A stretch of DNA of 64,000 nt from Candidatus Latescibacterota bacterium. Lineage in GTDB: Bacteria > Latescibacterota > UBA2968. A model generated the notes under the pieces. That model did not search any database. It was not told where the DNA came from and worked only from the letters and a program-made list of their open reading frames with translations. Position numbers and translations under genes: made by a program. Positions 20,333-40,098 of this stretch are shown piece after piece (position 1 is the stretch's first letter; each line of letters starts with the position of its first letter). Location: assembly GCA_965198115.1 (NCBI GenBank), contig OZ240241.1, positions 3,680,001 to 3,744,000 on the forward strand, in the 5' to 3' direction.

Positions 20333-20370
20333 TAAGTACTTACCGCCGTACTTCTCGATACTTCTATGGT

Positions 20371-20442
20371 CGTTCCGGGCACCCGCGAACTTGCCGTGGG
20401 TCGAGGGGCGTCAGCCTCGAGCCGCGGGTGCTGCTGTTAGGC
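20371..20442 (-). repeat. attC-like site, R' end degenerate or truncated
   Basis: Minus strand GCCTAAC-agcagcacccgcg...cgcgggtgcccggaac with no final GTT; follows the VOC gene. Confidence 0.55.
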
Positions 20443-20529
20443 GGTGTTGTTTTGACTCTCTCAGCGACCACCGGAGCGTCCACTCCGGGAATGTAGCATC
20501 GAGGCACGGACCGGATCTGTGTCCTGAGA

Positions 20530-20946
20530 TCATCCACGATTCGCCTCGGTCGGGCTCGTGAAGTTGAGGTGGTTACCGAATGGGTCCAGGAGATGCAACT
20601 CCGTCTTCCCCCACGGCTGGTCGACCAGCTCTGTCCCGTGGTGTGTCCCCCCTGCCGCTTCGAGCGCGTCCGGATTCCTGCACTTCAGGTCGTCGTAGAA
20701 CACATACACATCTTCCACATCCAACCCGATTCCGATGCCTTCTGGTACCTCCTTGTGCTCGGTCAGATGCAGAGCCAGCTCTCCATCTGCGATGCCGGGA
20801 CTCTCCCCTCTAGAAACCCCCATAAGCACCGGGAATCCCTCTTCGTGGCGCCACTCGAAATCGATCTTGAATCCGAGGAAATCAACGTAGTAGCGGACCG
20901 CTTCTTCGTAGCTTTTGATGTACAAGCAGGGATATGCACGTGACAT
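20530..20946 (-). CDS. VOC/glyoxalase-bleomycin resistance family protein (cassette)
   Basis: YYVDFLGFKIDFEWR, LHLTEH, DQPWG...DPFGNHL. Confidence 0.85.
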   Translation of the reverse strand: MSRAYPCLYIKSYEEAVRYYVDFLGFKIDFEWRHEEGFPVLMGVSRGESPGIADGELALHLTEHKEVPEGIGIGLDVEDVYVFYDDLKCRNPDALEAAGGTHHGTELVDQPWGKTELHLLDPFGNHLNFTSPTEANRG

Positions 20947-21049
20947 ACCAATCTCCGATCAGATTTCTTGAAGCTGTGCTGTCCGCGATTTCCCGGTCTT
21001 TTTACACCCACCCTAAAGACCTTAGCTAATACAGTAGCCAGCCAATGCC

Positions 21050-21130
21050 GCCTAACGGACAAGGCTGCCCGACGGCGCGAAGCGCTGTTTTGGCGGTGGG
21101 TATGGTGGGGGCGGGCAGCCGCAGTTAGCC
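21050..21130 (-). repeat. attC-like recombination site
   Basis: Minus strand GGCTAAC-tgcggctgccc...gggcagccttgtcc-GTTAGGC, an imperfect 81-bp palindrome. Confidence 0.8.
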
Positions 21131-21223
21131 GCTGTTGCAGTCCCGGTCCCTCACGCGACCCTTCAAGGATGGAAGGGCGTCGCGTAGAGCTATCAGGAAT
21201 CGGTTCCCCTAACTGTCGACCTA

Positions 21224-23670
21224 TCAGGCCAAGCGACTAAGCCGGCTTCTGATGAAGGCCGTGATTTCGGCGAGTTCATCCTCCTCATAGTTCGACTCAA
21301 TGAGATCCCAACAGGAGAAGAATCCTAATCCAGAGGTCTGACGATAGAAATGCAGCCACGAATCACGGTCTGACGGCAAAGGGCCGTCGTAAGCATCGAA
21401 GAAAGCATTGGTGCAAGGGGTGAGGAGATCCTCCCGACCGAACCCAAGATCGAACTCCTGATTTGAGAAATGGAAATAGAGTCGCGAGAGGTCCATAAAC
21501 ACATGCCCCGGGCGCATCCCACCGAGATCAAGGAGGCCGGTCACCCGATCCCCAGAGATCATAATGTTGGTGGCGGAAAAGTCACCGTGGACCAGACAGG
21601 GGGTGAGCTCGTCGCTCAGTTCTTGGATGGTCGTTCTCAACCACGCTTGTAGCTTGGAAGTAGAATCGGCGAAAGGAGTCTTGAGGCCCGATCTTGCCTC
21701 AGTCAGCCATCTCTGGAGCTCGTATTCTCGGGCTGACACGAAAAAGGGGTTCTCCGGTCCTTCGACGGATCGAACTTCACCATCCTCGTAGGTCAAGAAC
21801 CACCAAACAGCGAAAACTGAACGAGACTATGCAGCGTAGATACGATCTTACCGAGTTGCGAGTATACAGACACCGCTACATCGAGTGAAAGGTCACAACC
21901 AATATCTCTCAGATTCTGTCCAGGAATGCGACTCTTGACGAGGAATTCACCGTCCACCCCCGTCACCCGGAGTCCGGTATGTAGAATCCGGGGGAGGAGG
22001 ATTGTGGTCTTCTCAGACAAGATCCGAAGAGCAAGTTCCTCACGATCGACCGATCTCTTCTTTTTTATAGAGACGTGCTGAACGACAACCGCTTCGCCGT
22101 GCCTCGGTTCGATTAGGTATGTGGGTTTGTCAATCCCGCCAGGAGCTCAGGTCAATAGGTGTGTAAAAGAAATCAGGCGGCCATCTTCCCGGTTTCGACC
22201 TGCGGTCCGGTTGAGTGTTTCTGATCGTAGACTTGTTGTAGCAAGTGTGGCGCGGTGAGTTTCCTGAATCGGCTCTCTGCGACCTTGAGCGTACGCCAGA
22301 TGAGAGTCGTGGCGTTCCTGACTTTCTTGAATCGCCTGGCGGCGTTTGTGCGAAGCCGAACGGAAGCAAAGGGGCTCTCGACGACGTTCGTGGTTCTCAG
22401 GTGTTTCCAGTGTTCCTTCGGGAAGTCGTAGAACGTGACCATCCGATCCCAGTCTCTTTCGAGCGTCTCCACGGCGGCAGGGAACTGTGAGCGATACCGT
22501 GCGGCAAAGCGTTTCCGGAGCTTCTCGGCCTCCTTTTTCGTGCCGGCATAGGGGATCTGGACGAGCAGTGCGCGGGCTTCAGCCTGTGCACGCTTGGCGA
22601 CCTTGTCGAGCACGTTGAGGATCTTGTGGTTCCAGCACCGTTGTTGCCGGCTCTCTGGCCAGACCTGATCAACGGCCGCCCAGATGCCCATATTCCCGTC
22701 CGCGGCGATCAGGACAGGATGTTCGAGCCCGCGATCCCGGAGATCCCGGAGCACCGTGAGCCAGGATTCTGTAGACTCTCGATAACCGGGTTCTATCGCC
22801 AGGATCTCCTTGCTGCCGTCGCTCATCGCGCCGATCACGACCAGCAGACACGCCTTCTCGCGCTCGAGCCCGGCTTTGACGTAGATGCCATCAGCCCAGG
22901 CGTAGACCAGTTCGCGATTATCCAGACGCCTTTCTTTCCAGTCCTGGAAGTCGACCTCCCACTTCCCTCGAAGACGAGCGATCGAGGTCGGCGAAAGCGG
23001 CGCGCCATCACCGAGCAGCGCACGCAAAGACAACTCGAAGTCGCCCTGGGAGAGACCGTGGAGATAAAGGTCGGGAAGCAGATCTCCAATGGCCCTGGTT
23101 CTCCGGGCGAACAGGGGGAGGATGCGGCTTTCAAACCGCTCTTCCAGACCACGAACCCGGGGACGCCGGACCTTGATCGTTCCGCAGCTCGTCGAGAGAC
23201 GCCGGGGCTTGCCGTAGCCGTTCCTGTAGCCCCTGGAGCGAACTTGGGAGTACTGTCTACTCGATCTTTCCTGCTTGCCCCCAGGTGTCCACACCGGACG
23301 AGCCTGCGCCGTGGGAAGGGCTATCGACCTCGGCTCGGCGCTCATACCACGACCGGCCCAAGAACGCGGTCGCCTCCTCCTCCAGAATGGACTGGAACCG
23401 GCCCTGGATCTCTTCACGGATCCAATCGTCAACCGTCTCCCACGTCGGCATGGACTTCAATGGGGCTCTATGCGTATGTTCCTTCACGGCGATCCTCCTT
23501 CCCAACCGGGCCTCTCACCCGGTTTTGTGTGAATCAACTATCTCACGGGAAGGGTAGGGTCGCCCTTTCTCTTTTTCCACACCTTTTGATTATAGCTCCC
23601 CGCCAGTCATTTGTTGCACAGACGAGATGTCACATTGGAGAACTTGCTCGAAAACCTGTTGTGAGAATCC
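21224..23670 (-). pseudogene. Aminoglycoside phosphotransferase/kinase-like cassette gene, split by IS256 and frameshifted near 21795
   Basis: LVHGDFSATNIM and LLDLG motifs. The frame QQMTGGIDKPTYLIE...DREELALRIL is continuous across the IS once it is removed. Confidence 0.7.
22143..23598 (-). mobile_element. IS256-family element, copy A1 (carries an 82-bp insertion)
   Basis: IRs GAGCTataaTCAAaAGGTGTG / GAGCTcaggTCAAtAGGTGTG; 8-bp target duplication CCCGCCAG; RTTNVVES transposase motif. Confidence 0.92.
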
Positions 23671-23754
23671 GTTCAACTGTCTCTCACACTGGACTCTGGC
23701 GGCGCAGGGCACGCGCAACCGACCGGGACTGTGATGGCGGCTGCGGTGTTAGGC
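23671..23754 (-). repeat. attC-like site
   Basis: Minus strand GCCTAAC...tcaca...tgtga-gagaca-GTTGAAC; lies between the methyltransferase stop and the APH gene start. The stem is weak. Confidence 0.55.
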
Positions 23755-23825
23755 GTAGGCGGCTCCTTTCGGGCAAAGCCAATTGAGGAGAGTAATCGTC
23801 GCACGGTAGAACCAACTGGTGGGTC

Positions 23826-24614
23826 TCAGACCCTCTGGAGTATCAAGTAGATGTTCCCGAGTTCCCCGGACAGGTTCTCCCTGTCTTTCAATTCTTCGAA
23901 ATCCTCGCCGTATATCGCCACAATCTCAAACTGGCCAGATCGTTCAACCAAACTCTCGAGATCATCAAAAAGCCACATCCTTAAGGTGTGGCGGTCTTCA
24001 AGGTGTTCTAGCCTATCGTCTTGTTCGACTTGAAAGGAGCAAATCTCGTGGCTGAGCTTGGATTCCCTGTCTTCGGTGATGATTTCCCAGGAGGTTTTCA
24101 CGCGGATTCCGTCACGTACCATCGTCCAGCGGTCGTCGGGATCTCCGATGCCTTGAAGTTCGCCATCCTGAGCAAGATTCAGATGGACGATGTAGACACC
24201 GTTCTCTCGAAGGGAGGAACCCGTAGCTTTCAGGTGGGCGATCACATCGGCATCGGAAAGCAGATAACGAAAGCTGTTGATCGAATTATAAGCTGCATCG
24301 AATTCACCATGGATCTCAGACGAAACCATGTCGGCCAGTAGAATCTTAGCATCTTTCAGGCAGCCGGCGTCCGAGACAGATTGCTCCGCGTATTGGACCA
24401 TAGCAGGGCTTATGTCATAGCCTGTCACTCGAAACCCGTGTTTAGGAAGCACCCTCAGAAAGCGACCTGAGCCGCAGGCCGGTTCCAGCAAACGTGTCAC
24501 CGTAAACGGTACGTGTGTTTCGAATACCCTCTTGAAGAAGGCAACTTCGCGTGAAAGGTCCCAAGAGAACGCGATGTCGTAGATCTCAGGATGATCGTAG
24601 AGTTTGAAGCTCAC
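23826..24614 (-). CDS. Class I SAM-dependent methyltransferase (cassette)
   Basis: LLEPACGSGR, GYDISPAM, FDAAYN. Confidence 0.88.
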   Translation of the reverse strand: MSFKLYDHPEIYDIAFSWDLSREVAFFKRVFETHVPFTVTRLLEPACGSGRFLRVLPKHGFRVTGYDISPAMVQYAEQSVSDAGCLKDAKILLADMVSSEIHGEFDAAYNSINSFRYLLSDADVIAHLKATGSSLRENGVYIVHLNLAQDGELQGIGDPDDRWTMVRDGIRVKTSWEIITEDRESKLSHEICSFQVEQDDRLEHLEDRHTLRMWLFDDLESLVERSGQFEIVAIYGEDFEELKDRENLSGELGNIYLILQRV

Positions 24615-24649
24615 GTGTTTTCGTGCCCCTCAGTTTCTTAGCCGCTTAC

Positions 24650-24739
24650 GCCTAACGGTTTCACAATTCACGACGCCGCGAATGGGGGGTGCCGAAGGCC
24701 AAGCGCCGCAAGGCGCGCAACGGGAATTGCTGGTTAGAA
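24650..24739 (-). repeat. attC-like recombination site
   Basis: Minus strand TTCTAAC-cagcaattc...gaattgtgaaacc-GTTAGGC; the next gene starts 36 bp later. Confidence 0.8.
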
Positions 24740-24784
24740 GACGGGATACTGCAACTTGTGCAAAAACTCGTCTCAGAGCAGAAA

Positions 24785-25780
24785 CTACCTTTGAGGGATC
24801 TTCACCTGGGAAAATTGAAAGTTCGGTCCTTTGGTATAAGTGGCCCCAAGACCCAGCCCCCAGTCATACGGCCCGGGGCCGGCTTGCTCTTCAGCCCACG
24901 CCTTCAGCGGAACACTATCCCATTCGTCCGTAAACCAGTATTGCGACGACGGATTGCCGATCGGGTCTTTGCCGAGCCGATCTGAACCATCGCCCGTGGC
25001 CCCCAGTAGCTGCCGTCGGATAGGCGCACTGCGGGCAATCACCTCTGGATCCTGTTCTATATAACCGCTCGGTCGTATCCATCTGGGCGCATAGCTGATA
25101 TAGAGGGCCTTGCGGAAGTTTGTGGAAAGGTTGGGGGTCACACTGTGCAAGATCGTGGGCCGCCATAGCATGGCGCTGCCGGCCGGTACGCGCAATGCGA
25201 AGATGTCCTCCGGATCGAGCCAGGACTCCCAGGTAGCCCGTTGCTCTCGGGTCCACTGGTAGCTACCGGGCACCATAAGGATGGTGCTGTGACCAGGCTC
25301 GGTATGATCCGAAACGTACCAGCCGACCTTAAAGTCCAGGAGGGGCATGCGGCCATCTATCGTCGTGCCAGCGAATTCTTCTTCATAATCGAAATGCCAT
25401 CCCAGCGATAATACGTCGGGATCGGTGTCGCCAGGCTGCGGCGCTTTATAGTCAAAAACGCTATCGCGATTTTGAATATTCCAGCCCATGGCATCGACGA
25501 CCAAGGGCAGGATGCGGGGATGATCGAGCAAGTCCATTATGACCTCATGACGTGCCACCGCATTGCGGACGACGACGCTGTCATTGGGACCCAAGCCACG
25601 TACTTTCCGAAGCTGCTCCGCCACCTCGTCCATACCTGCCCACAAGCGTTCTAGCTCGGATGGGTTCAATACACGCTCTAATACCGTGAACCCCTGTCCG
25701 TTGAGTTCATCTTTCTGTTGATCGGTCATAGCTATTGTCATCTGATTTCCCTCTACTTTTGTCGCAAATGCATCCTGCAA
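24785..25780 (-). CDS. Phytanoyl-CoA dioxygenase (PhyH)-family Fe/2OG enzyme (cassette)
   Basis: NGQGFTVLERVL, WHFD (HxD), VPGSY, ILHSVTPN, RKALY. Confidence 0.87.
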   Translation of the reverse strand: MQDAFATKVEGNQMTIAMTDQQKDELNGQGFTVLERVLNPSELERLWAGMDEVAEQLRKVRGLGPNDSVVVRNAVARHEVIMDLLDHPRILPLVVDAMGWNIQNRDSVFDYKAPQPGDTDPDVLSLGWHFDYEEEFAGTTIDGRMPLLDFKVGWYVSDHTEPGHSTILMVPGSYQWTREQRATWESWLDPEDIFALRVPAGSAMLWRPTILHSVTPNLSTNFRKALYISYAPRWIRPSGYIEQDPEVIARSAPIRRQLLGATGDGSDRLGKDPIGNPSSQYWFTDEWDSVPLKAWAEEQAGPGPYDWGLGLGATYTKGPNFQFSQVKIPQR

Positions 25781-25792
25781 AATACTCCTGTT

Positions 25793-25925
25793 GTCTAACG
25801 TTTCAGCAATCGCGAAGCCGGCCCTTCGGCAGGCTCCCTTCGACTTCGCCCCTCGACTCCGCTCGGGACAGGCTCAGGACAGCAGGACAGGCTCTCGCCG
25901 GTTTGGGTGGCTGGGTTCTTGGGCA
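25793..25925 (-). repeat. attC-like site containing nested REP-like palindromes
   Basis: R' GTTAGAC sits just upstream of the PhyH RBS; arms cagcaatcgcgaagccgg / ccggtttgggtggctg; R'' degenerate. Confidence 0.6.
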
Positions 25926-26062
25926 GGGGGGCGCGTCCGCGGTGTTAAGTGTCCGTGCCGGTGCCAGTGGTTGAGGACGCGAGTATAGAAGCATCGTCGT
26001 CTTGAGGTCTTGGTGACCAAGGCGTTCCTGAATGGTCCGGATGTCGTTAAGCTGTCTGCAGA

Positions 26063-26857
26063 CTAGCGCTCCACGATGTGGGCAAACAGCGGCCTGACCT
26101 TCTCGGGTAGCGCGGCGTACGTCTCGGCCGTAATCAGCTGCACGTCTTCAGGCCGGGTCCCGGTCTCTTCGGCCACGCGTTCGTACTCGATTGTGCCAGG
26201 GATCAGGTGATTCAGGTTAAGCCACCAGGGCGCATACCGGACCACAACCGCGACCCGGGTGCGATCGCTGACGTTGGCGGCCGTGGCGTGCCACATCCGG
26301 CTATCGAGGATCAGCACGTTCCCGGCTTCGCCCGTGGCCTGCATCTCGGTCGGATATGGAGCGTGAGCGTCGACGCCGATGTTTCCGGAGGGATTGCCGG
26401 GTGCTCTATGGCTCCCGGGAACCAGAAGCGTACCGCCTGTTTCCTTGGTGAAGGTCGTCAGCATCCATATCGTCGTCAGGTGCATGACGGCGTCGGCGTA
26501 GGGCGCCGGAATATGTCGGGACTGCTTCTGGCCGAACGGCCAGTCTGAGTGCCAGTTGTCCCGTTCCTGCCCCGGCGTGGTGACCAGTCCCGTGGTAAAC
26601 GATACCCGTGCGTACGGGCCGAAGAATGCCTCCACGATGCCCAGCACACGGTCGTCCGCCAGATAGGGCGCCAGGGATTGGTTGTAGGTGATAAGGCCCC
26701 TAAGGGCGTGTCGAGCGCCCTCTTTACCCCTGGCGTCGGACCTCGCGGTTTCAACGATGCTCTGGCAGACTGCGTCTACCTCGTTCTCCGGTATGACGCC
26801 GGGAACAACGCACCATCCGTCCATCTTGATGCGCCGCACCGCTTCTTCTTTTGACAA
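26063..26857 (-). CDS. PhyH-family Fe/2OG dioxygenase (cassette)
   Basis: DGWCVVPGVI, WHSD, GGTLLVPGSH, MWHATAAN; GAGGAGG RBS. Confidence 0.88.
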   Translation of the reverse strand: MSKEEAVRRIKMDGWCVVPGVIPENEVDAVCQSIVETARSDARGKEGARHALRGLITYNQSLAPYLADDRVLGIVEAFFGPYARVSFTTGLVTTPGQERDNWHSDWPFGQKQSRHIPAPYADAVMHLTTIWMLTTFTKETGGTLLVPGSHRAPGNPSGNIGVDAHAPYPTEMQATGEAGNVLILDSRMWHATAANVSDRTRVAVVVRYAPWWLNLNHLIPGTIEYERVAEETGTRPEDVQLITAETYAALPEKVRPLFAHIVER

Positions 26858-26888
26858 GCCAACCTCCTCGCCATCACTATTGTAAGAG

Positions 26889-26951
26889 CGGCAACGTCAC
26901 TCCTATCGAACGCGTGGCATGTTCTGACACGCCGATGACGGGTCGTTTGCG
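26889..26951 (-). repeat. Short attC-like site
   Basis: Minus strand CGCAAAC-gacccgtcatcggcgtg...cacgcgttcgataggagtgac-GTTGCCG (63 bp); lies just before the PhyH start. Confidence 0.6.
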
Positions 26952-27113
26952 GACTACTAAAGGCAACCACCAAGACACGAAGACACGAAGAAAGGCAACC
27001 GAGACAGCACGTTCCCACACGCCTCGAGCCCGAGAAGATGGCCGTCATGCGGCCCGACGCCGTCACCCTCGGAGACGTCTACCTGATGGTATCCCACGGG
27101 CGACAAACAACTC

Positions 27114-27260
27114 TTATGCTGGTGGCGCCACCGAGAGCTTTCCTTGAACGCCGAACTGTTCGATAAAGCTTGCGACTAAGCCGTTGGCCTTTGACGCTTC
27201 AACAAAGGCTTTGAGCCAGGCATAGGCTGCCTCATTGCCATGAGAACGCCGTTCATACAT
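27114..27260 (-). pseudogene. Probable C-terminal fragment of an ABC substrate-binding protein
   Basis: Hand translation ...GNEAAYAWLKAFVEASKANGLVASFIEQFGVQGKLSVAPPA*. Confidence 0.4.
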
Positions 27261-27371
27261 CCGTCCTTTCGTTACGCGGTCTATATTACGGACTAATTAG
27301 GTTCTTCCACGGGAAAATGGTGGCGCCCCACGACGCTCGGGCACGTGGATCAGTTGGTGGAGAGTCCCTCT

Positions 27372-29647
27372 ATGTCAGATCAGAAAGGCCTGCGAATCGC
27401 GGTGAGGAAGTTGGATGCGTTCGGGTGTTGTGCCTATCGTAGTTGAAACTTAGAGGGCTCCAAACTTACGTTGGGTAGACGTGTAGGAGCGTATACCCGT
27501 AAGAAAGGAGCCCAGATGGAGAAGCTATTTGTAGGCGATGGTGAAGTCAAGGTTGAGGGCGATGTCATCGATTTGGAGACGCGTTTGTCGGTGATCCAGG
27601 CGTTGATCCCGTTGGGTCTGGAGGCAGTGGCAGACCTCCTCCAGCAGGAGGTCGAGCAGCTCGCAGGCGTTCGGTATGCGCGCAAAGGTTCGGAGCAGGC
27701 GCATCGTCGGTGGGGAAGCCAGAAGGGATCCGTGTATCTGATGGACCAGAAGCTCCCGTTAGACGTTCCCCGGGTGCGCGACGTCGAGGCCGACGCAGAG
27801 GTTTCCCTGGCTGCATACCGGGCTCTACAGACGCCCAAGAAGACGGACGAGGGGCTGTTGCTTCGTGTTCTCAAGGGGATCTCGTGCCGCAACTACAAGG
27901 CCTGTGCCGAATCGGTTCCAGAAGCGTTTGGTATCTCAGCGTCCTCCGTCTCGCGGCGGTTCATCAAAGCCACCGCGAAGAAGCGGAAGCAGTTCCAGGA
28001 GCGTCCCCTCGACGACTACGGCTTCGTGACCCTGTTCATTGACGGAAAGAGCTTTGCCGACAAAGAGATCGTGATCGCTCCGGGGGTCACGATGGACGGC
28101 CAGAAGATCCCCCTGGGCTTCGTCGAATCGGCGACGGAGAACGAACGGATCTGCCGCCAGCTGATCCAGGACCTCATCCGGAGAGGCCTGTGCTACGACC
28201 AGGGCCTTCTCGTTGTGCTTGACGGCTCAAAGGGACTCCGCAGTGCTGTCACCAAAGCCCTCAAAGGGTATGTGCGCGTGCATCGCTGTCAGTGGCACAA
28301 GCGCGAGAATGTCGTCAGCTATCTCCCGGAGAGGGAACGTCCAAGAGTTCGACGGAAGCTCCAGAAAGCCTATGACTGCGACACCTACGAGGAGGCAAAA
28401 GCCGCACTCGAATCACTTAAACCCGAACTGAAGCTGATGAATCAGTCTGCCGTAACGAGCCTCGAGGAAGGCCTGGAGGAAACCCTGACCCTCCACCGGC
28501 TGGGTATGCTCCCATTCCTGAAACGAAGCTTCCGAACCACCAACTGCATCGAAGCCCTCAACAGCAGGACCGGCGAGCTCACTCGGAAGGTCAGACGCTG
28601 GAACAACTCTCCCCAGAGACACAGATGGGTGGCTGCCGCACTCCTCGACATCGAACCTCGCCTGCGACGCGTGAGCGGATACAAACATCTTCCCCTACTC
28701 AGGCAAGCACTGAACAAAGATCTGAATCTCGACAACGAACAGAATGCTCAAAAGAGAGCCTGACCAAACTACGGGGCCCGATGAGTTTTCAACTGACTAT
28801 GGGACTTGACCTGCGTTCGAGCGGGCGATAGAAAGACAATGGACTGACTTTTGCAGATCGGAGCAAGATGATTGGACTCTGGAAATCGTGTCCCTCAATA
28901 TTCCCGACTTGCATACAGCGTTGTTTGAAAAAGGCGGACTCGAGCGAGGCGATTTCGACGTCGCTTTTGTCGTGACGGATTGGATCGCTGAAGCAGCTGC
29001 CGGGCATCACCTCGCGGATTTGCAGCCCTACTTGAAAGAGCTGCCACCGGAGGATTACCCCCACGGATGGGATCACTCTCTATTACGCTTCCAGACTTAT
29101 GGAAACGAAGTATATGGTCTTCCCTACCATAACGGACACAAATGCCTGATTTATCGAAAAGACCTTCTCGACGACCCAGGAGAACGGGCAAACTATGAGA
29201 GAAGATTCGGTAGTCGTCTTGCAGTACCGCAAACGTGGGATGAGTTTACACGGGTTGCCCGGTTCTTTAATCGCCCGAAAAGTGGAATGTCGGGTGTTGT
29301 CTTTGTCGCGCATGAGGATGGATACAATACTGTTTGCGACTTCTGTCTTCATTTGTGGTCACGAGGGGAGAGCTTGGTTACGCGAGTGGGAATCTTGTTC
29401 TGAACCATCCACTTGTGGAAGAAACGTTAGCATTCTACCGCAAGATTGTGAATGATCCCCAAATTGTCCCCGCGCATACGCGGATGTTTGACGCCGTAGA
29501 ATCGGGGATGGCTTTTGTTAGGGGCGAAGCGGCCATGATGATGAACTGGTTCAGCTGGGCAGCGCAGTGTGAACGTCTGTCCGAATCCAAAGTAAAAGGG
29601 AAGGTTGGGGTTGCTCATTTGCCGAATGAGAATGAGCAACCCGGGTT
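27372..29647 (+). pseudogene. Sugar ABC extracellular solute-binding protein, IS-interrupted, frameshifted and truncated
   Basis: MSDQKGLRIAVRKLDAF|ERAIERQW... is continuous across the IS; LIYRKDL, VPQTWDEF; frame change near 29370; cut by IS256 at 29648. Confidence 0.75.
27424..28811 (+). mobile_element. IS256-family element, type B (transposase ORF 27471-28763)
   Basis: IRs GGT...AGTTGAAA at both ends; 8-bp duplication TGCGTTCG; FIDGK, LDGSKGL, RCQWHK, RTTNCIE. Confidence 0.9.
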
Positions 29648-31001
29648 GAGCTATAATCAAAAGGTGTGGAAAAAGAGAAAGGGCGACCCTACCCTTCCCG
29701 TGAGATAGTTGATTCACACAAAACCGGGTGAGAGGCCCGGTTGGGAAGGAGGATCGCCGTGAAGGAACATACGCATAGAGCCCCATTGAAGTCCATGCCG
29801 ACGTGGGAGACGGTTGACGATTGGATCCGTGAAGAGATCCAGGGCCGGTTCCAGTCCATTCTGGAGGAGGAGGCGACCGCGTTCTTGGGCCGGTCGTGGT
29901 ATGAGCGCCGAGCCGAGGTCGATAGCTCCACGGGCTACAGGAACGGCTACGGCAAGCCCCGGCGTCTCTCGACGAGCTGCGGAACGATCAAGGTCCGGCG
30001 TCCCCGGGTTCGTGGTCTGGAAGAGCGGTTTGAAAGCCGCATCCTCCCCCTGTTCGCCCGGAGAACCAGGGCCATTGGAGATCTGCTTCCCGACCTTTAT
30101 CTCCACGGTCTCTCCCAGGGCGACTTCGAGTTGTCTTTGCGTGCGCTGCTCGGTGATGGCGCGCCGCTTTCGCCGACCTCGATCGCTCGTCTTCGAGGGA
30201 AGTGGGAGGTCGACTTCCAGGACTGGAAAGAAAGGCGTCTGGATAATCGCGAACTGGTCTACGCCTGGGCTGATGGCATCTACGTCAAAGCCGGGCTCGA
30301 GCGCGAGAAGGCGTGTCTGCTGGTCGTGATCGGCGCGATGAGCGACGGCAGCAAGGAGATCCTGGCGATAGAACCCGGTTATCGAGAGTCTACAGAATCC
30401 TGGCTCACGGTGCTACGGGATCTCCGGGATCGCGGGCTCGAACATCCTGTCCTGATCGCCGCGGACGGGAATATGGGCATCTGGGCGGCCGTTGATCAGG
30501 TCTGGCCAGAGAGCCGGCAACAACGGTGCTGGAACCACAAGATCCTCAACGTGCTCGACAAGGTCGCCAAGCGTGCACAGGCTGAAGCCCGCGCACTGCT
30601 CGTCCAGATCCCCTATGCCGGCACGAAAAAGGAGGCCGAGAAGCTCCGGAAACGCTTTGCCGCACGGTATCGCTCACAGTTCCCTGCCGCCGTGGAGACG
30701 CTCGAAAGAGACTGGGATCGGATGGTCACGTTCTACGACTTCCCGAAGGAACACTGGAAACACCTGAGAACCACGAACGTCGTCGAGAGCCCCTTTGCTT
30801 CCGTTCGGCTTCGCACAAACGCCGCCAGGCGATTCAAGAAAGTCAGGAACGCCACGGCTCTCATCTGGCGTACGCTCAAGGTCGCAGAGAGCCGATTCAG
30901 GAAACTCACCGCGCCACACTTGCTACAACAAGTCTACGATCAGAAACACTCAACCGAACCGCAGGTCGAAGCCGGGAAGATGGCCGCCTGATTTCTTTTA
31001 C
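29648..31001 (+). mobile_element. IS256-family copy A2 (intact transposase 29741-30991; right IR cut by ISL3)
   Basis: Near-identical to A1/A3/A4; the right IR stops at 31001, where ISL3 begins. Confidence 0.9.
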
Positions 31002-32421
31002 GGCTATATCCGGATCTCTCAACGAGCTGAAGTGGGTGAAGGTGCCGTGGTTCCTGGCATGGGGGCGCGGTTAGCGTGTGCGGAACCTCTTCGGAATCTG
31101 CTCAGGGATGTTTATGTCTCCGACGGTAAGGAAGATCATATCGTTGAATGCGTCGAGTGTGCGGAATCCGCTGGCTCGGTTCTTGACGATTTGGACGATT
31201 CGGTTGAGGCCTTCGGCGATGGCGTTGGTAAGACGCGTGTTCACGAATGCGAGGACGCCGAAGAAGTGCTGTCGCAGGGTCCTGACGAACTTTCGCAGGG
31301 GTTCACGTCGACTTCTGAGTGCGGACGTCGTCCAGCATTTCAGGAAGCGTTCGGCAGCCCAGGGCGCTTTGTATTCCCAGAACTGCTCGAACTCGTCCTT
31401 GAGTCTCCAGGCTCTATAGATTCGGTAGTTCGCCTTCTCCAGTGCTTTGAGTGTCCGAGTATCCCCTCTGGAGCGTGTCGCTGAGTGCCGGTAGAGGAGC
31501 CATCGGAGGCCCTTCATGGCTTTGCGCTCATCCGGGGCAGCTTTACGCCACTGGTCCTTACGGACCTCGTCAACGGCGGCATTGAGAGCCTTGACGATGT
31601 GAAAGCGATCGAGGACCAGCTTGGCATTCGGACAGTGTTCCTGGATGGCTCCGATGTAAGCTTCGCTCATGTCGCAGCAGGCCCACTCGATCTTGGATCT
31701 CTGGTAGGGACTGAGAGCCTCTGTGAAGAACCGATCGATCGTTTTACGCGCCCTGCCGCGGCCAACCCACACCACGCAGGAGCGGTCCAGATCGTAAACG
31801 AGCGTGGCGTACCTGTGACGCTTGGCGTAGGAGATCTCGTCGATCCCGATGGTTTTGAGCCCTCGGATACGATGACCTTCACGAAGCCGCGTGATGGATC
31901 GGTGAAGGAGATCCGACAGCGTCGAGGCAGAGATGCGCAGCAACTCGGACGCCGCCTTCTGCGTCATGGTCTGGCAGTAGCGCAGCATGGCATACTCGAA
32001 GCGATACGTCACCCGAGAGAACCGCTCCGCCCACGGAATCTCCTCGACCACACGACCGTGGGTAGGACACCGAATCTCCCGAGGATGGTAGAGAAGCCAG
32101 ACCCTCCACCCGCACACCGGAATGTCACGCCACCGACGCGGATGGGGCATTGTGCGGACGATTTTACCTCGACGGCCGAACTCCGGACAACAACAACCAT
32201 TCTTATGTGGCTTTACGGCGATGACGAAACAGCTTCTCCCCTCAAACCACCAGCTGACAACACGGAACCCCTTGAATCTCAGCAGTTTCGATAGTAATCT
32301 GCTCCCGGTCATAGGTCGCACCCCCTTCGCTTTGATTGTCCTACACACACAACCAAGCGTAGGGAACGATCTATGACCTTGTCATTCTATAGTTTCACCG
32401 TTGAGAAACCCGGATAGAGCC
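31002..32421 (-). mobile_element. ISL3-family element (transposase 31071-32348)
   Basis: IRs GGCTaTATCCGG / GGCTcTATCCGG; IGIDEIS, CDMS, DRFHIV, TNAIAEGLN. Confidence 0.9.
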
Positions 32422-32426
32422 TCTTT

Positions 32427-33042
32427 GGCTATATCCGGATCTCTCAACGAGCTGAAGTGGGTGAAGGTGCCGTGGTTCCTGGCATGGGGGCGCGGTTAGA
32501 GTGTGCGGAACCTCTTCGGAATCTGCTCAGGGATGTTTATGTCTCCGACGGTAAGGAAGATCATATCGTTGAATGCGTCGAGTGTGCGGAATCCGCTGGC
32601 TCGGTTCTTGACGATTTGGACGATTCGGTTGAGGCCTTCGGCGATGGCGTTGGTAAGACGCGTGTTCACGAATGCGAGGACGCCGAAGAAGTGCTGTCGC
32701 AGGGTCCTGACGAACTTTCGCAGGGGTTCAAGTCGACTTCTGAGTGCGGACGTCGTCCAGCATTTCAGGAAGCGTTCGGCAGCCCAGGGCGCTTTGTATT
32801 CCCAGAACTGCTCGAACTCGTCCTTGAGTCTCCAGGCTCTATAGATTCGGTAGTTCGCCTCCTCAAACCACCAGCTGACAACACGGAACCCCTTGAATCT
32901 CAGCAGTTTCGATAGTAATCTGCTCCCGGTCATAGGTCGCACCCCCTTCGCTTTGATTGTCCTACACACACAACCAAGCGTAGGGAACGATCTATGACCT
33001 TGTCATTCTATAGTTTCACCGTTGAGAAACCCGGATAGAGCC
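32427..33042 (-). mobile_element. Internally deleted ISL3 copy in tandem with the full copy
   Basis: Same ends; in-frame join SWWFE|EANYRIY gives a 157-aa ORF; separated from the full copy by 5 bp (TCTTT). Confidence 0.9.
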
Positions 33043-33176
33043 TTCTTTATGGTGTCGGTTTGCATCTACTCGTCCTCCATCTACTGAATCCGTCAGTGCT
33101 TCAGAATCTGCTATGCTGACAGGGTTGGGTTTTTGTCTTGTCTGCGATGTACGGCTTCTGAGATTCTGCCAATACC

Positions 33177-33283
33177 ACATAACCGTTCTCACAATGCCCG
33201 ACGTTTGCCGGAGCGTAGCGGAGGCAAATGTGCCCGAAGGGCCGAGCGACCGAAGGGAGCAAAGTGGGCATTGTGTGTTAAGC
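33177..33283 (-). repeat. attC-like recombination site
   Basis: Minus strand GCTTAAC-acacaatgccc...gggcattgtgagaacg-GTTATGT. Downstream GGAGG...ATG (MQTDTIK, 33065) is cut by ISL3. Confidence 0.8.
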
Positions 33284-33360
33284 GTCCCTGTTGTTTTTTG
33301 TCATCAGGACAGGAAAAAGGAGCGGACATCACCTTCTTCAACAGAGGATTTGACAGACCC

Positions 33361-35541
33361 ATGACCCCAGAACAGCGATATCTCTTCGACATAAACGAGC
33401 TCAGGTCAATAGGTGTGTAAAAGAAATCAGGCGGCCATCTTCCCGGCTTCGACCTGCGGTCCGGTTGAGTGTTTCTGATCGTAGACTTGTTGTAGCAAGT
33501 GTGGCGCGGTGAGTTTCCTGAATCGGCTCTCTGCGACCTTGAGCGTACGCCAGATGAGAGTCGTGGCGTTCCTGACTTTCTTGAATCGCCTGGCGGCGTT
33601 TGTGCGAAGCCGAACGGAAGCAAAGGGGCTCTCGACGACGTTCGTGGTTCTCAGGTGTTTCCAGTGTTCCTTCGGGAAGTCGTAGAACGTGACCATCCGA
33701 TCCCAGTCTCTTTCGAGCGTCTCCACGGCGGCAGGGAACTGTGAGCGATACCGTGCGGCAAAGCGTTTCCGGAGCTTCTCGGCCTCCTTTTCGTGCCGGC
33801 ATAGGGGATCTGGACGAGCAATGCGCGGGCTTCAGCCTGTGCACGCTTGGCGACCTTGTCGAGCACGTTGAGGATCTTGTGGTTCCAGCACCGTTGTTGC
33901 CGGCTCTCTGGCCAGACCTGATCAACGGCCGCCCAGATGCCCATATTCCCGTCCGCGGCGATCAGGACAGGATGTTCGAGCCCGCGATCCCGGAGATCCC
34001 GGAGCACCGTGAGCCAGGATTCTGTAGACTCGATAACCGGGTTCTATCGCCAGGATCTCCTTGCTGCCGTCGCTCATCGCGCCGATCACGACCAGCAGAC
34101 ACGCCTTCTCGCGCTCGAGCCCGGCTTTGACGTAGATGCCATCAGCCCAGGCGTAGACCAGTTCGCGATTATCCAGACGCCTTTCTTTCCAGTCCTGGAA
34201 GTCGACCTCCCACTTCCCTCGAAGACGAGCGATCGAGGTCGGCGAAAGCGGCGCGCCATCACCGAGCAGCGCACGCAAAGACAACTCGAAGTCGCCCTGG
34301 GAGAGACCGTGGAGATAAAGGTCGGGAAGCAGATCTCCAATGGCCCTGGTTCTCCGGGCGAACAGGAGGAGGATGCGGCTTTCAAACCGCTCTTCCAGAC
34401 CACGAACCCGGGGACGCCGGACCTTGATCGTTCCGCAGCTCGTCGAGAGACGCCGGGGCTTGCCGTAGCCGTTCCTGTAGCCCGTGGAGCTATCGACCTC
34501 GGCTCGGCGCTCATACCACGACCGGCCCAAGAACGCGGTCGCCTCCTCCTCCAGAATGGACTGGAACCGGCCCTGGATCTCTTCACGGATCCAATCGTCA
34601 ACCGTCTCCCACGTCGGCATGGACTTCAATGGGGCTCTATGCGTATGTTCCTTCACGGCGATCCTCCTTCCCAACCGGGCCTCTCACCCGGTTTTGTGTG
34701 AATCAACTATCTCACGGGAAGGGTAGGGTCGCCCTTTCCTCTTTTTCCACACCTTTTGATTATAGCTCACATAAACGGCTATCTGCACATTCCGGACGTA
34801 CTGAGTGAAGCAGAGCTGGCTGCGGCGCGAGAAGCGATCGAGCGCTACGTGACAACCCCCAAGGAGGAGTTGCCGGAGGGCTTCTCCCATTCCGAAGACG
34901 GCAAGATGCATGCGAACGGCTTCGCCTGGGACAAGAGCCTCGAGTCCATCGTCGTCCATCCCAAGCTGTGGCCCATCATCATGGAATTCACCCACGACCG
35001 GCCCGGCTTCGCGAGGGGCACCCTTCTCGTGGACAGCCATCATCTGGGACCGGGACGGCTCCATTGCGCGAGGGAGGATTTCGGCTGGGAGAGTACGAGA
35101 TTCGACACGCGCGAGGGCCGCATCTACTGCGACGATTTCGTCATCTTCCCCTATTTCGATGACGTTCTTCCGGGCGATGGTGGACTCATCGTCGTGCCGG
35201 GGTCGCACAAAGCGGCCTTCGATCGCCCTGAGACCCTGTTCAACGACGGGATGATGGCGGAACTCGACGATTTGCCTGCCGGGGTGGTCAACGTGACGCC
35301 GCGGGCGGGGGACGTGATCGTCATGACGGAGATGCTCGCCCACGGTACCCTGCAGTGGAAACCGACGGACCGTCAACGCCGCACCCTCGTGCTGCGCTAC
35401 CGGCCTCAGTACAGAAACAGGACCGCCGCACGGGAAGCGATCCAGGAGCGGCTCTCACCACAAGTCAGAGAGCTGATGGATTATGCTCACTACACCGATG
35501 TGAAGGAGATCGCCAAGGAGGAAGTGGTGCGGCTTACGTGA
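33361..35541 (+). pseudogene. PhyH-family Fe/2OG enzyme interrupted by IS256 copy A3
   Basis: MTPEQRYLFDIN|GYLHIPDVL is continuous after removing the IS and the ACATAAAC duplication; VVPGSHK, LAHGTLQW. Confidence 0.85.
33397..34768 (-). mobile_element. IS256-family copy A3 (transposase frameshifted twice)
   Basis: Both IRs present; 8-bp duplication ACATAAAC; small deletions near 33790 and 34030. Confidence 0.92.
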
Positions 35542-35610
35542 CGATACGCAGGTCGCGTCGCTCCTCGATCCCCGCCTGCCTACCTCGTCGACGCAGCGAA
35601 ACCCTTTCCG

Positions 35611-36774
35611 CTACTGTGGGGCGCGATCCAGGCGCCACACGTCTCCCGGACGCCACGCAGACTCGACCCGATGCGTGAAGTCCCGCTTGCTCAGCTCAGC
35701 CTGCTCCGTCGAAATAGTAACCGCACTTCCAGCAACGAGGAAAAGAGCGTCCCGGTGGACGTGGACGGCACAGGCGTGACGTAGGCTCCAGGGCGTGTAC
35801 GGCAGCTCCTGCCAATGTTCGCCATCCTCCGAATACCACACGTCATTTCGATTGCCCTCGGTGGCAACCTCACTTGGGTGGTCAGCCACTCCCCGGTGTC
35901 CTCCCAACACCCAGAGCTTGCCATCCCATACTGCGGTATCGTGGTATGAGCGAGCCGGCCAGGGAGCCATTCCCTCCGCCAGATGGCATGTCCAGTCGCG
36001 ACCGTCTGCCGACGACCACACATCGTTGTGATAGACGCGGGCTTTCAGTCTGGGCTGCTCTTCGAGATCGTATCGCAGCGAGCTCAAGGTGGTTCCGCCC
36101 GCCCCGACATAGCCGCCGCCGAGGATCCACATTCGACCATCGAGGACGGCCACGCCACCATTCGCGCCGGTAATCATGCCCCTGGGCGCCCATGGCGCGC
36201 TATCCGTCACCAGCTCCCAGCTCAGACCGTCGTCCGTCCGCCAGACATCGCACAGCGGCGGAGGGGCCGGTGGGAAAGGTCTCCCAGCTTTCAGGTCCGC
36301 CACGAAACTGGTTTGTGCGGCGGCGCCGGCCTGGCCGCCCAGAACCCAGATCGAGCTGTCGAAGACGGTGACCATCTGGTTGCCGCGCTCCTGCCAGGGT
36401 ACGGTGGCCGCAACGAGCTCCCAATTCGCGCCATCTTTCGATTTCCACACGTCGTCGGGTGTCCCGTTCTCCGCCCCAACGATCCAGATGTGGCCGTCGT
36501 GCACGACCGCACCGTGCATGTGCCTGCCGCTCCACGGAGCAGTGGTCGCCAGGGACCAGCTGGCGCCGTCGTCGTCCGAGCACCACACCTCCGAACACAC
36601 CTCCGACTCGAAGGAGCCGTCACCGGCGCCGGCGAGGTCGTCCCGCTCGCCCGCGTACTGGTTCCAGCCACCAAGCAGAAAGAGCTTGCCGTTGAAGGAG
36701 ACGAGCTGCGCCCCGTCGCGAGGCGACCACGCCACCTCCGAGCTCACACAGCTCCAGCTATACTCGTCTGCCAT
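35611..36774 (-). CDS. Kelch/galactose-oxidase-like beta-propeller repeat protein
   Basis: About 6 repeats of (A)PWxxR...V.DG.(I/L)W(V/I)LGG...DVW.S.DG..W. Confidence 0.75.
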   Translation of the reverse strand: MADEYSWSCVSSEVAWSPRDGAQLVSFNGKLFLLGGWNQYAGERDDLAGAGDGSFESEVCSEVWCSDDDGASWSLATTAPWSGRHMHGAVVHDGHIWIVGAENGTPDDVWKSKDGANWELVAATVPWQERGNQMVTVFDSSIWVLGGQAGAAAQTSFVADLKAGRPFPPAPPPLCDVWRTDDGLSWELVTDSAPWAPRGMITGANGGVAVLDGRMWILGGGYVGAGGTTLSSLRYDLEEQPRLKARVYHNDVWSSADGRDWTCHLAEGMAPWPARSYHDTAVWDGKLWVLGGHRGVADHPSEVATEGNRNDVWYSEDGEHWQELPYTPWSLRHACAVHVHRDALFLVAGSAVTISTEQAELSKRDFTHRVESAWRPGDVWRLDRAPQ

Positions 36775-37248
36775 CGTTTGTTCCCGAGTCTGGGGAGGGT
36801 TGTGATCTTGATAGCCAGCTTATGTGAAAGGTAAAACGCCTTGACGCAACTCGAATCAAGACTTCGTGCTCTTTCGTGATCTCCGCAATCCCCATTCCGG
36901 GTTCTTCACGCAGAAGAGTGGATGGCTGACGCGCTTCCTTTTTCGCGAACTCATTTTTGGGGTGTTCTCTTTTGTGACCAAAAGAGAACCAGAAAAGTCC
37001 CGCTCAAGCGCCGCGGGGGCTTGTGGCCCAGGCCGGCAGTACGACCCAGCTCGATGACGACACTAGTGACAAGCCCCAAGTGCCTCCCCACCCAACCCTA
37101 TCCCCCCTGGAGTTGAAACAACGACGTTGCTCGTTACCGCCTCTACCTGGGCCTCTACTGTGTGGGCGTCTGTTCTCTTAACGGTCTTTGTGCGTCTTGT
37201 CTCCGAAGGATCCACTCAAAACCGCCCATTCCGCAATGGCCTAAGCGG

Positions 37249-38598
37249 TCACACGACCCTGCGTCCTTCCTCCACTACAACCCGCCCCGAAATCATCACC
37301 ATCTTCACCCCCGACAGCCTTCCCGGTTCTGTCACGACTACGTCGGCGACTCTTCCAGCTTCTATGAAGCCTCGATTCGGGGCCAGCTTCGGAATCGCCT
37401 TCGTCACGTTCCCCGTGGCCTTGGCGACGCCAGAGGCCGTGTCCAGGATGCCCGCTTCCACGGCCTTTTCGATCGTGAGCAGAATCGGATCCCAGCAGCC
37501 GTTCAGGAAGTCGGTCGAGATCAGGTCAACCAGACCTGATTCCAGCAGGGCGAAGATCGTCTCCGGAGTCGGAGTCGACTGCTGCACGCCGAACGAATCC
37601 TCCCCGGAGTAGATGTCGACAAACACCCCGTGTTCCTTCAGGTGTCTGGCCCTCGTCACCGCCTCCTGCGGCGTGAACATATGATTCGAATGCGCCGCGA
37701 TCATTCCAGGACCCGCCTCGCCAGCGATTCGAGCGATCAGATCTGCATTTTCGCCAGAATGGTGAGCGATCACCGGCACCTCGAGCCGCTTGCCGATTTC
37801 GATCGATTCTTTGAGCGCCAGCTTTGACGCCTCGTGCTGCCGCACGACATCTTGAGCCACCCGTCTGACCACTTCAGCCGTGAGCACCCCGTTCAGCTCG
37901 GTCTCGTTGATCGCTTCGGTCACGGCCTGCTCGTCATACGGCTTCAGGGGCGGCGCCCCGGGAAGCTCGAACAGCGCGCTGGAAAGCCTCTTCGCCTGGT
38001 CGATCAGAATCGGTCGGCCAGCCGCGCGATAGAACTCGAACAGGCAGTACGGGCTCGAAGGCACCGCCGTCTCGCCAACAGCGACCGCCCCCTCTGAAAT
38101 CATCTGCTCCGCGGTCAGGTTCGCGTGGAGGTCGTCGATATACCCGCCGTGCCGGCGGATGTTTGCCATATTCTGTTCGCTGTGTATCGTCGCGGCTCTT
38201 ACGTTGAGGGGATGAATCTTGTTCATCGCCTCGACTTCCCACACGCTCGTCAACCCGTCCAGCGAGAGCAGCGTTGTCGCGCCATCCAGAAGATGCTTGT
38301 CCAGATAGCCGAAGATGCGCGCGATCGGCCAGCGATGTTCCCCGAAGAAGGTAGGCCCGGAATCTGAGTTCGCGTGATAGTTGGGACCGAAGGCCACTTC
38401 GTGCGAGTGGTGATTGATCAATCCCGGGAGGATAAATCCACCCTGCGCGTCGATGATTCGATCGGAATCGTTGTAGGGGATGTACTTCGTGTCGTGGATC
38501 CGAGTGATGAAAACGTCTTCCACGACGACAGAAGACTCGGGAAGGACCGTCTTTCCGTCACCTGTAACGATCGTGCCGTTGACAATGGAGATCTTCAT
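37249..38598 (-). CDS. Metal-dependent amidohydrolase-superfamily protein
   Basis: IDAQGGFILPGLINHHSH, IAHH, AHSNH, DLISTDF, RGFIEAGRVADVV. Confidence 0.8.
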   Translation of the reverse strand: MKISIVNGTIVTGDGKTVLPESSVVVEDVFITRIHDTKYIPYNDSDRIIDAQGGFILPGLINHHSHEVAFGPNYHANSDSGPTFFGEHRWPIARIFGYLDKHLLDGATTLLSLDGLTSVWEVEAMNKIHPLNVRAATIHSEQNMANIRRHGGYIDDLHANLTAEQMISEGAVAVGETAVPSSPYCLFEFYRAAGRPILIDQAKRLSSALFELPGAPPLKPYDEQAVTEAINETELNGVLTAEVVRRVAQDVVRQHEASKLALKESIEIGKRLEVPVIAHHSGENADLIARIAGEAGPGMIAAHSNHMFTPQEAVTRARHLKEHGVFVDIYSGEDSFGVQQSTPTPETIFALLESGLVDLISTDFLNGCWDPILLTIEKAVEAGILDTASGVAKATGNVTKAIPKLAPNRGFIEAGRVADVVVTEPGRLSGVKMVMISGRVVVEEGRRVV

Positions 38599-38608
38599 CA
38601 GCTTCCCC

Positions 38609-38780
38609 TTAGCAGTACTTGCGGTACTTCAAAACCTCTCGGCGCGCGCCTTCTCTGATCCACTCGAATTCGTCATTCACCTCGAAGAACCTGCAGCCTC
38701 GTGCGATCCATTGTCCTCCCGCCTTCGGTCCCGACACGGTCGTACCGAAAGGCACGCCGTGCTTCACGCACAGATCCTCG
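38609..38780 (-). pseudogene. Probable C-terminal fragment of an HpcH/HpaI-type aldolase
   Basis: Hand translation LCVKHGVPFGTTVSGPKAGGQWIARGCRFFEVNDEFEWIREGARREVLKYRKYC*, ending at the amidohydrolase RBS. Confidence 0.4.
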
Positions 38781-38802
38781 TCGAGGACCCACGGATACGA
38801 AA

Positions 38803-39225
38803 CTACGACATCTCGCCAAACGCAGTGATTTCTTCGACGTATGCCGAATCGAACTGCAGCGCCTCAACCAACTGTGATAGCTCGGTCGCGTACGCGGGAT
38901 TCGCCCCGGCTAGACCCAACTCGCGCGGCAGGTTGTAGCAGTACGTCTCGACAGCTTCGCTTGTGTCCAACAGCCCCACCTGTACGCGTTCTCGTATGTA
39001 CTCGCGAACACTCGGTTCCGAGTAGAGCGCGCGAGCTTCCTGGTCGGCGAGCTCCATCACGATTCCATAGGCGCGACTCGAAGCGGATCGCAGCAATGTT
39101 GCTCGCTCGCCGATGTGGATGCGGTAGTCGGGTAGCACTGCAGGCCCGATAATCTCTGGGCGAAGACCCTTCTCAGTGAGAAGAGACCGATCCATAAACA
39201 GGCCGTAGAAGAAGATCTTGCTCAT
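38803..39225 (-). CDS. Gamma-glutamylcyclotransferase (GGCT/AIG2-like) cassette protein
   Basis: IFFYGLFMD, AVLPDY, AYGIV, Y..ERV; starts 17 bp after the attC R'. Confidence 0.75.
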   Translation of the reverse strand: MSKIFFYGLFMDRSLLTEKGLRPEIIGPAVLPDYRIHIGERATLLRSASSRAYGIVMELADQEARALYSEPSVREYIRERVQVGLLDTSEAVETYCYNLPRELGLAGANPAYATELSQLVEALQFDSAYVEEITAFGEMS

Positions 39226-39241
39226 GGGTTCGGAGCTGTCC

Positions 39242-39322
39242 GCCTAACGTTCTGCCGATGTGCGAACCCGCGTAGGGGGTTGGTGGAGCCAAGGTCCGAA
39301 TGCGCACATCGCGCCGTTATGC
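39242..39322 (-). repeat. attC-like recombination site
   Basis: Minus strand GCATAAC-ggcgcgatgtgcg...cgcacatcggcagaac-GTTAGGC. Confidence 0.82.
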
Positions 39323-39397
39323 GGCGTGAATTCCTGATTCTGCTCCAGCTTGAGTGCTATGATCTGCACTTAAATAACGTCGCGTGCATCCGGCTTG

Positions 39398-40098
39398 TTA
39401 ATTCTGTAGCAGCTCTTCTGCCTCTCCGGAAAACGATTCCAGGTCACTCTTCGCAATGAATACATGTCCTGTCCGACACACTTCTTGTCCTGGCTGAATG
39501 AGACCAAACCAGAGAAAGACATCTGTACATGGCCACCCCTGATTCGAGCTCACGGCAACGGCATCTGTCGAGTAATGACACGTCAGCAGCGGTTCGCCCT
39601 TCACGATATTCCAGGCAACTACGCCGGGAAAGGAAACGCTGGTGCCGGTTAGTTGATCGCGGCTGAGAGCTGTTCTGGCGCATTCGGCAGTCATTCCGTT
39701 GACCGGTAGATAACAGTGCCCGCGAATGTGTGGAACGTCTTGAAAGGGAATCCAGCGATCTCCCAGCTTCACATATGGCCGATATCCTGTGGCTGGCGAC
39801 TGGAAACTGTTGAAGCAAATCCAGGTGTAGACATCCTGCCAAGGGACATCGGAACCATTCGTTACGCGTACCTCGTAGTGGATGCCGGTGTGATCGTTGC
39901 GTATAGCTGCTGCCTGGTATCCGACCACCGTACGATCATTCTCCGAACCAGCTTTAAGCCTCACCTTAGATCCCGATTGATCCCAACATCCAAGGAGATT
40001 CCTTACAGGACAACGGTCGTATGACCATCCATCATCGTTTGACTGCCAGTTCATTCCGATCTGGTAGTGATGCTTCTGTCCGTTTAGGAATACTTGCT
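39398..40098 (-). pseudogene. Hypothetical cassette protein, probably 5'-truncated by IS256 A4
   Basis: The ORF frame stays open up to the IS end (QVFLNGQKHHYQIGM...) and is followed by an attC site. Confidence 0.55.

Follow-up and report, generated by a model that had tools for sequence, protein, structure and literature searches.

Between an insertion sequence (IS) starting at 19035 and another ending at 42869, the window (the whole 64,000-nucleotide stretch analyzed, positions 3,680,001 to 3,744,000 of contig OZ240241.1 of a Candidatus Latescibacterota bacterium) carries genes, IS elements and imperfect palindromes bounded by AAC and GTT cores (Table 1). An earlier note on this DNA had named eight co-oriented sites there and read them as attC sites of a CALIN (cluster of attC sites that has no integron integrase). 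We found six of the eight to be real and to form one family; the site named at 23671 is a half-site whose proposed left boundary had no support, and that at 26889 was not supported. The broader claim, that the sites bound the cassettes of an integron-type array that IS activity wrecked and that has no functional integrase close by, was borne out, as was the absence of a tyrosine recombinase open reading frame (ORF) from the window, where the integrase trace is a 77-nt 3' fragment. The sites themselves are not canonical attC, and the enzyme associated with them is not IntI.

Sites were assigned with R1, a covariance model built from 18 sites of four related genomes, none of them the source genome. 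Run over the 64-kb window with filters off, R1 found five sites at 22–43 bits, the next-best match scoring 13.6 bits. The sixth site (25793) was recovered with half-site profiles: its right half, ending at 25950, scored 13 bits, and its left half 21.3 bits, which nothing in 600 kb of background equalled. The arms of this site hold three mismatches, and the same subtype is intact in genome G010. At 23671 only the right-hand core (23748–23754) was supported, at a place where the homologous cassette of genome G039 has a full site. Both cores are present in five of the six supported sites, the exception being the one named at 20371, which has lost its AAC core. Four supported sites and the half-site cluster at 20364–25950, and 33177 and 39242 lie apart. 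In all six the strand that reads AAC first is the more stable, and the plus strand is the bottom strand for the minus-strand genes of the window. The placement of sites between a stop codon and the next minus-strand start, described in the earlier note, held for 21050, 24650, 25793 and 39242; 33177 has an IS on one side and a plus-strand gene on the other. Over 23 sites, a stop codon lay within 400 nt in 20 and a start in 21, counted with IS ORFs included and with no random control. An Rfam search gave no family at the sites; elsewhere in the window it gave a weak Acido-Lenti-1 match at 45170–45212, under the gathering score.

On the plus strand the clear sites read RYYTAAC, 6–8 nt, one arm of a 9-bp stem, an interior, the partner arm, 3–4 nt and GTTR; the stem is unbulged and usually ends in CG, and the interior is branched and variable. 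In canonical attC, as described by Nivina et al. 2016 (PMC5027507), each arm has a spacer of 5–6 nt, and two or three bases at the L box are extrahelical. Among 133 distinct two-core sites of the family, the left spacer exceeded the right by 3 nt in 75, by 4 nt in 31 and by 2 nt in 15; a stem bulge was absent from 125, and in 126 the G after AAC faced the T before GTT, forming a G-T wobble. When 146 distinct sites were aligned, with the alignment fitted to the R1 model, 92% of cells were paired (31–40% in slid controls) and eight of the nine outer-stem pairs showed compensatory changes; the unfitted 18-site alignment gave 91% pairing and compensatory changes in seven of nine. The AAC-first strand folded more stably in 127 of the 146 sites. 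The fold that covaries comprises the core pair, an asymmetric loop of 6–8 and 3–4 nt, the unbulged 9-bp stem and the branched interior.

For comparison we used R2, a canonical attC covariance model made from six sites, which is a small stand-in for IntegronFinder's model. Window sites scored no more than 12.1 bits with R2, from the cores only, against 24–51 bits for held-out canonical sites, and a canonical-geometry script made no match in the window. Folding of the bottom strands, which the earlier note had proposed for finding extrahelical bases, gave unbulged stems. By both geometry and canonical model the window sites are not canonical attC, so the assignment to attC and CALIN fell, though the sites are real. 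Elsewhere in the source genome (G000) R2 found one canonical attC, a solo copy at G000:C1:2236546-2236604 (40.7 bits), which lies 11 kb from a non-canonical solo site.

The family is widespread. R1 matched 32 of 41 genomes including the source genome, with up to 74 sites in one, and an intI above the TIGR02249 cut-off occurred in 1 of the 41 genomes searched. There were 186 matches across 33 sources, the best 150 of which entered the alignment; the sites lie a median of 1.1 kb apart, in long same-strand arrays. The source genome holds at least 16 full-length R1 sites, a lower bound since 150 of its 4,423 candidates were scored. Solo copies are scattered through it, and a second array (G000:C1:6398663-6410774) has six family sites downstream of a recombinase gene, P0001; a GTTA junction lies about 120 bp past the stop of that gene, and the first cassette contains an IS256. 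A 6/3 geometry was also seen beside a P0001 homolog in a Patescibacteria-group genome (R1 31–36 bits) and, by script only, in Phaeodactylibacter.

Cassettes of the family swap neighbors where integron cassettes do, at the AAC of the downstream core. Across the flanks of 149 sites, the site body went with the upstream gene, the other flank differing, in seven pairs; in 12 pairs only the downstream flank was shared, and no pair had the reverse pattern. Some of these pairs repeat between close genomes. Identity started at TAAC. In runs X3, X5 and X8, which come from three studies, contigs from a related organism matched the methyltransferase unit of the window to 24657 and the PhyH unit to 25803, each end at most 4 nt from an AAC core and followed by other sequence; window 33050–40100 was excluded from this comparison. 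The homolog of the methyltransferase gene in G039 (69% identical) has the same core and a complete site with different neighbors, and among nine homolog loci it was the only one with flanking R1 matches. One joint in run X1, between 21085 and 24689, was rejected as an excision product, as it lies inside site interiors and not at cores.

The search of the genome for intI that the earlier note had suggested returned no gene above the TIGR02249 cut-off. The best match was P0001 (6410043–6410774), the only integrase of the array type in the source genome, 2.7 Mb from the window. P0001 aligns to residues 71–181 and 240–320 of VchIntIA, with 16 residues against 58 in between; it has no IntI I2 insertion, a gap also seen against a canonical IntI. 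It is 57–67% identical to full-length genes that stand at the head of arrays in G025, G039, G026 and G012, and a search for its homologs in 168 genomes of the phylum gave 35 matches, spread over 24 genomes. Its top NCBIfam match was NF040815 (197 bits, under the cut-off of 220). We then asked R1 for sites at 20 I2-less loci in genomes not used to train it, having left out the source genome, six examined genomes and three G080 copies of 51% identity. Sites were found at 13 of the 20, at none of 16 xerD loci and at none of 21 canonical intI loci (17 belonging to the phylum, three on plasmids and one in a named genome), many of the last being short or broken. The canonical-geometry script found its target at 5 of the 17 phylum intI loci, one doubtful, and there were two unsupported non-canonical matches. 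In the loci tested, family sites accompany the I2-less enzyme but not IntI. Both enzyme types are present in five genomes (G070, G080, G098, G150 and G153).

G025, G039 and G032 remain homologous for about 130 bp past the I2-less gene, up to a GTTA beyond which their first cassettes differ; G088 and G090 also have this motif behind the gene. Judged from these alignments, the junction has the pattern of a putative docking site. Integrase 3' fragments with the docking junction recur inside arrays in G025, G039 (two loci), G032 and G029, as if the docking module had been duplicated.

Together these results lead us to conclude, with good confidence, that the window holds six sites of a non-canonical integron-like family, likely the remains of dead arrays that an I2-less recombinase once shuffled and that rearrangement driven by IS elements has since fragmented. 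As to mechanism, the I2-less enzyme would bind the folded bottom strand and cut within the AAC of the downstream core. The strand may be chosen through the lopsided loop and the G-T wobble, which becomes an A-C mismatch on the opposite strand, rather than through extrahelical bases, cassettes would be inserted at a docking site near the integrase gene, and the junction would presumably be resolved by replication as in integrons. We lean, by a narrow balance, to a general reading in which an I2-less sister lineage of the integron integrases recombines folded single-stranded sites marked by the lopsided loop and the wobble, in parallel to canonical integrons, within the same phylum and in the five shared genomes, on separate sites.

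The earlier note had also allowed for an array serviced in trans, and we rate it as quite unlikely that such service continues, whether through the IS91-type integrase at G000 3498383 or through one arriving from elsewhere. The 3498383 gene is I2-less, has a 297-aa open frame and lies 200 kb from the window, several window sites are intact, and in G036 elements of the IS91 type lie in or beside arrays. However, a stretch of the 3498383 gene is out of register with its G036 homolog, so that the gene looks damaged by compensating frameshifts. P0001 is itself 5'-truncated, with no start codon before residue 83, and its N-terminal domain was found nowhere in the source genome; service in trans is unlikely because the sole integrase of this type lacks that domain. 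The contigs of the best-matching run, which show presence only, held no excision joint at cores. Near seven other site clusters, a search for integrase remnants gave only an unrelated phage-type integrase near 5.67 Mb. The system in the source genome is probably inactive.

An ordinary CALIN, in which the sites would be degenerate canonical attC formerly worked on by a canonical IntI whose 3' scrap is 25971–26047, is in our judgment very improbable. The cores (RYYYAAC/GTTRRRY) and the polarity are the same, the window does hold an intI-like scrap, canonical intI occurs in 16 of the 168 phylum genomes (with a frameshifted copy in G003) and the source genome has its one canonical attC at 2236546; in addition, a passage of PMC5027507 reports that some attC recombine without extrahelical bases. 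Against this, the short arm and unbulged stem are not decay, because they are conserved with covariation in more than 140 sites, and the R2 scores of the window sites and the lack of R1 sites at intI loci point the same way. That the sites are REP- or MITE-like palindromes (repetitive extragenic palindromes or miniature inverted-repeat transposable elements) or terminators between genes is scarcely credible: solo copies, REP-like interior hairpins and one REP-like insert do occur, but the arm sequences vary freely yet covary, the arrays are long and same-stranded, Rfam knows no such family, and the changes of neighbor exactly at one core largely refute it.

Several observations weigh against our preferred reading of an I2-less cassette system. 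In X3, X5 and X8, a body like that of 21050 is joined at its gene-proximal core to the tail at 25944, a joint for which simple polarity gives no direct explanation. This 22-nt tail (window 25944–25966) recurs at the gene-proximal core with different bodies and upstream genes in six genomes; routine use of that core was not supported as its cause, with 0 pairs in the flank test. Seven of the 20 I2-less integrase loci had no R1 site; in five of these a contig ends within about 1.1 kb of the 3' end of the gene, in two it does not. The link between site and enzyme is one of co-occurrence only, among kin genomes that are not independent. A quick tree separated the Xer and IS91-type enzymes (SH-aLRT 91 for the IS91-type group); it did not place the array-type enzymes in one clade, and did not resolve array-type genes and IntI at depth. 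I2-less IS91-type integrases also sit inside arrays: G036, with 74 family sites and no intact array-type integrase, has six copies, and the three inspected all lie inside cassette arrays, where the IS possibly targets family sites. The single integrase trace of the window is nearer to canonical intI (72.7% over 77 nt to that of G003) than to the I2-less type, and three of the six window sites depart from the G-T wobble of the family. Lastly, a loose geometry scan, whose matches clustered in the window and at 6.398–6.408 Mb, gave 30 matches genome-wide against 37–59 in four shuffles. TAAC is depleted in the real genome, which is why the scan was not enriched; geometry alone is therefore not significant, and significance was taken from the covariance model. 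A loose scan also marked a core-bounded hairpin after prfB (window 13355–13415), which has no R1 match and is probably due to chance.

CALIN are described in PMC4889954 as cassette sites without an integrase, originating through genome rearrangement or integrase loss. The window resembles them in having at least two co-oriented sites and no integrase nearby, and differs in the geometry of its sites, their failure under the canonical model and an associated enzyme other than IntI. With sedentary chromosomal integrons the family shares its AAC/GTT cores, a crossover in the downstream-core AAC, a site that travels with the upstream gene, a more stable bottom strand, single-gene cassettes of about 1 kb and a docking junction near the integrase. 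Unlike them, it has spacers of 6–8 and 3–4 nt in place of 5–6 per arm, no extrahelical bases, a conserved G-T wobble and a branched interior, and an enzyme without I2 whose gene is co-oriented upstream of the array or divergent. The IS91-associated tyrosine recombinases share with P0001 about 50% identity and the lack of I2, and are found inside arrays in G036, but they are multicopy, are followed by an IS91-type transposase and lie apart in the tree, whereas P0001-type genes are followed by the docking junction and cassettes. P0001 has the same compact catalytic domain as XerC/XerD and archaeal XerA (NF040815); unlike XerC/XerD, it belongs to loci with family sites, and the source genome keeps its own XerC and XerD.

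In PMC7790495 the I2 helix is presented as the innovation enabling integron integrases to recombine single-stranded attC hairpins. A cassette system that has the cores and crossover of integrons but lacks both I2 and extrahelical bases allows a direct test of that claim; if the system works as proposed, single-strand cassette recombination would be independent of the I2 helix, which it may predate. We found no description of an I2-less cassette system in the accessible literature, which comprised titles and abstract openings, most subscription journals lying outside it. Surveys based on attC may miss a large cassette pool, given the 32 of 41 genomes with family sites and the single one with intI over the cut-off. 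The window is a decayed example whose value lies in its matched controls and natural junctions; the intact copies of relatives are better experimental material.

The block has been much rearranged. Five IS types make up 48% of 19035–42869, against 9.6% genome-wide. The source genome has about 500 near-full copies of these five elements and measures 8.4 Mb, against 5.6 Mb for a genome of the same genus. The IS pile-up next to tRNA-Cys is present as the earlier note described; that end had been taken for the former position of intI/attI, and synteny in relatives marks it as a rearrangement breakpoint instead. In G001, G002, G003 and G010 tRNA-Leu(TAA) follows tRNA-Cys, and the source genome has it at a distance of 3.3 Mb; the ftsK-side flank of G001 and G002 runs into a block located at 1.63 Mb in the source genome. 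Since the tRNA-Cys and ftsK flanks have different neighbors in relatives, the block lies between two rearrangement breakpoints. R1 found no site in the nine syntenic loci of relatives. The span is not a tRNA-integrated genomic island: the 3' end of tRNA-Cys has no repeat of 14 nt or more elsewhere, and the flanks have different neighbors in G001 and G002. Nor is it one continuous array: it consists of the core at 20364–25950 and two isolated sites, and in between lie ISs, an inverted PhyH gene that IS256 interrupts and two genes that have no site. In another region, G000:C1:2870558-2872531, 20 tRNA genes lie in 2 kb, probably a mobile tRNA array.

Table 1. Sites, genes and IS elements of the block and its borders, in window positions
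Feature	Position	Strand	Details
ISAzo13-family IS	19035..20336	+	74 near-full genome copies; left boundary of the block, rearrangement breakpoint
42-nt piece	20332..20373	-	duplicated (41/42) at G000 8098941, directly before the GTT starting a cassette
Family site	20364..20442	-	R1 28.9 bits (match from 20367); spacers 7/4; downstream AAC core lost
Glyoxalase/bleomycin-resistance-superfamily cassette gene	20530..20946	-	Pfam PF19581, PF00903
Family site	21050..21130	-	R1 22.1 bits; spacers 6/3; perfect 9-bp stem
Phosphotransferase (APH-fold) gene	21224..22130	-	PF01636; frameshifted, IS-cut
IS256-family element	22143..23600	-	133 near-full genome copies
Half-site	23703..23754	-	gene-proximal core intact, body collapsed, distal core lost
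S-adenosylmethionine (SAM) methyltransferase cassette gene	23826..24614	-	in G039 between family sites, with other neighbors
Family site	24650..24739	-	R1 37.4 bits; spacers 7/3
PhyH-family dioxygenase cassette gene	24785..25780	-	longest ORF; true start probably near 25741
Family site	25793..25950	-	spacers 6/3; 158 bp; decayed arms, REP-like insert in inner hairpin
Integrase 3' fragment	25971..26052	-	frameshifted, 77 nt (25971–26047); TIGR02249 E 2.9e-4
Second PhyH-family gene	26063..26857	-	
Unsupported site of the earlier note	26889..26951	-	no R1 match; half-site scores at background
IS block	27424..33051		two IS256 types, ISL3, partial ISL3; broken plus-strand solute-binding-protein gene
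Family site	33177..33283	-	R1 37.4 bits; spacers 8/3; isolated
Third PhyH-family gene	33361..35541	+	IS256 insertion 33396–34769, 9-bp target duplication
Kelch-repeat and amidohydrolase genes	35611..38598	-	no site between
GGACT-family gene	38803..39225	-	directly after site 39242
Family site	39242..39322	-	R1 43.2 bits, top in window; spacers 7/4
Hypothetical gene, 218 aa	39398..40054	-	upstream of site 39242
IS256 and DDE_Tnp_1_4 element	40098..42869		right boundary, rearrangement breakpoint
tRNA-Cys	43400..43473	-	incidental neighbor

The 42-nt piece is a weak candidate for a docking (attI-like) site: with a 13-nt profile it ranked 23 of 218,980 GTT positions, and with longer profiles 791 and 4596. 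Its duplication at the head of a mini-array at 8.099 Mb hints at a shared history. A reading as a DUF1330 fragment was rejected: Pfam gave it no support there, and none of 40 relatives had a clear match. The integrase fragment starts at an RYYTAAC core (26046–26052), 10 nt past the PhyH stop, and may, at low confidence, be a scrap captured by off-target recombination.

The Kelch-repeat and amidohydrolase genes are probably not cassettes. A query with the GGACT-family gene gave no match in the 40 relatives, and the 218-aa hypothetical protein fell in no Pfam or NCBIfam family, with unnamed Atlas clusters at 0.96–0.97. Outside the block, by ftsK, a lamin-tail/FlgD-Ig gene (window 17739–19064) has its 5' end apparently cut by the ISAzo13-family element.

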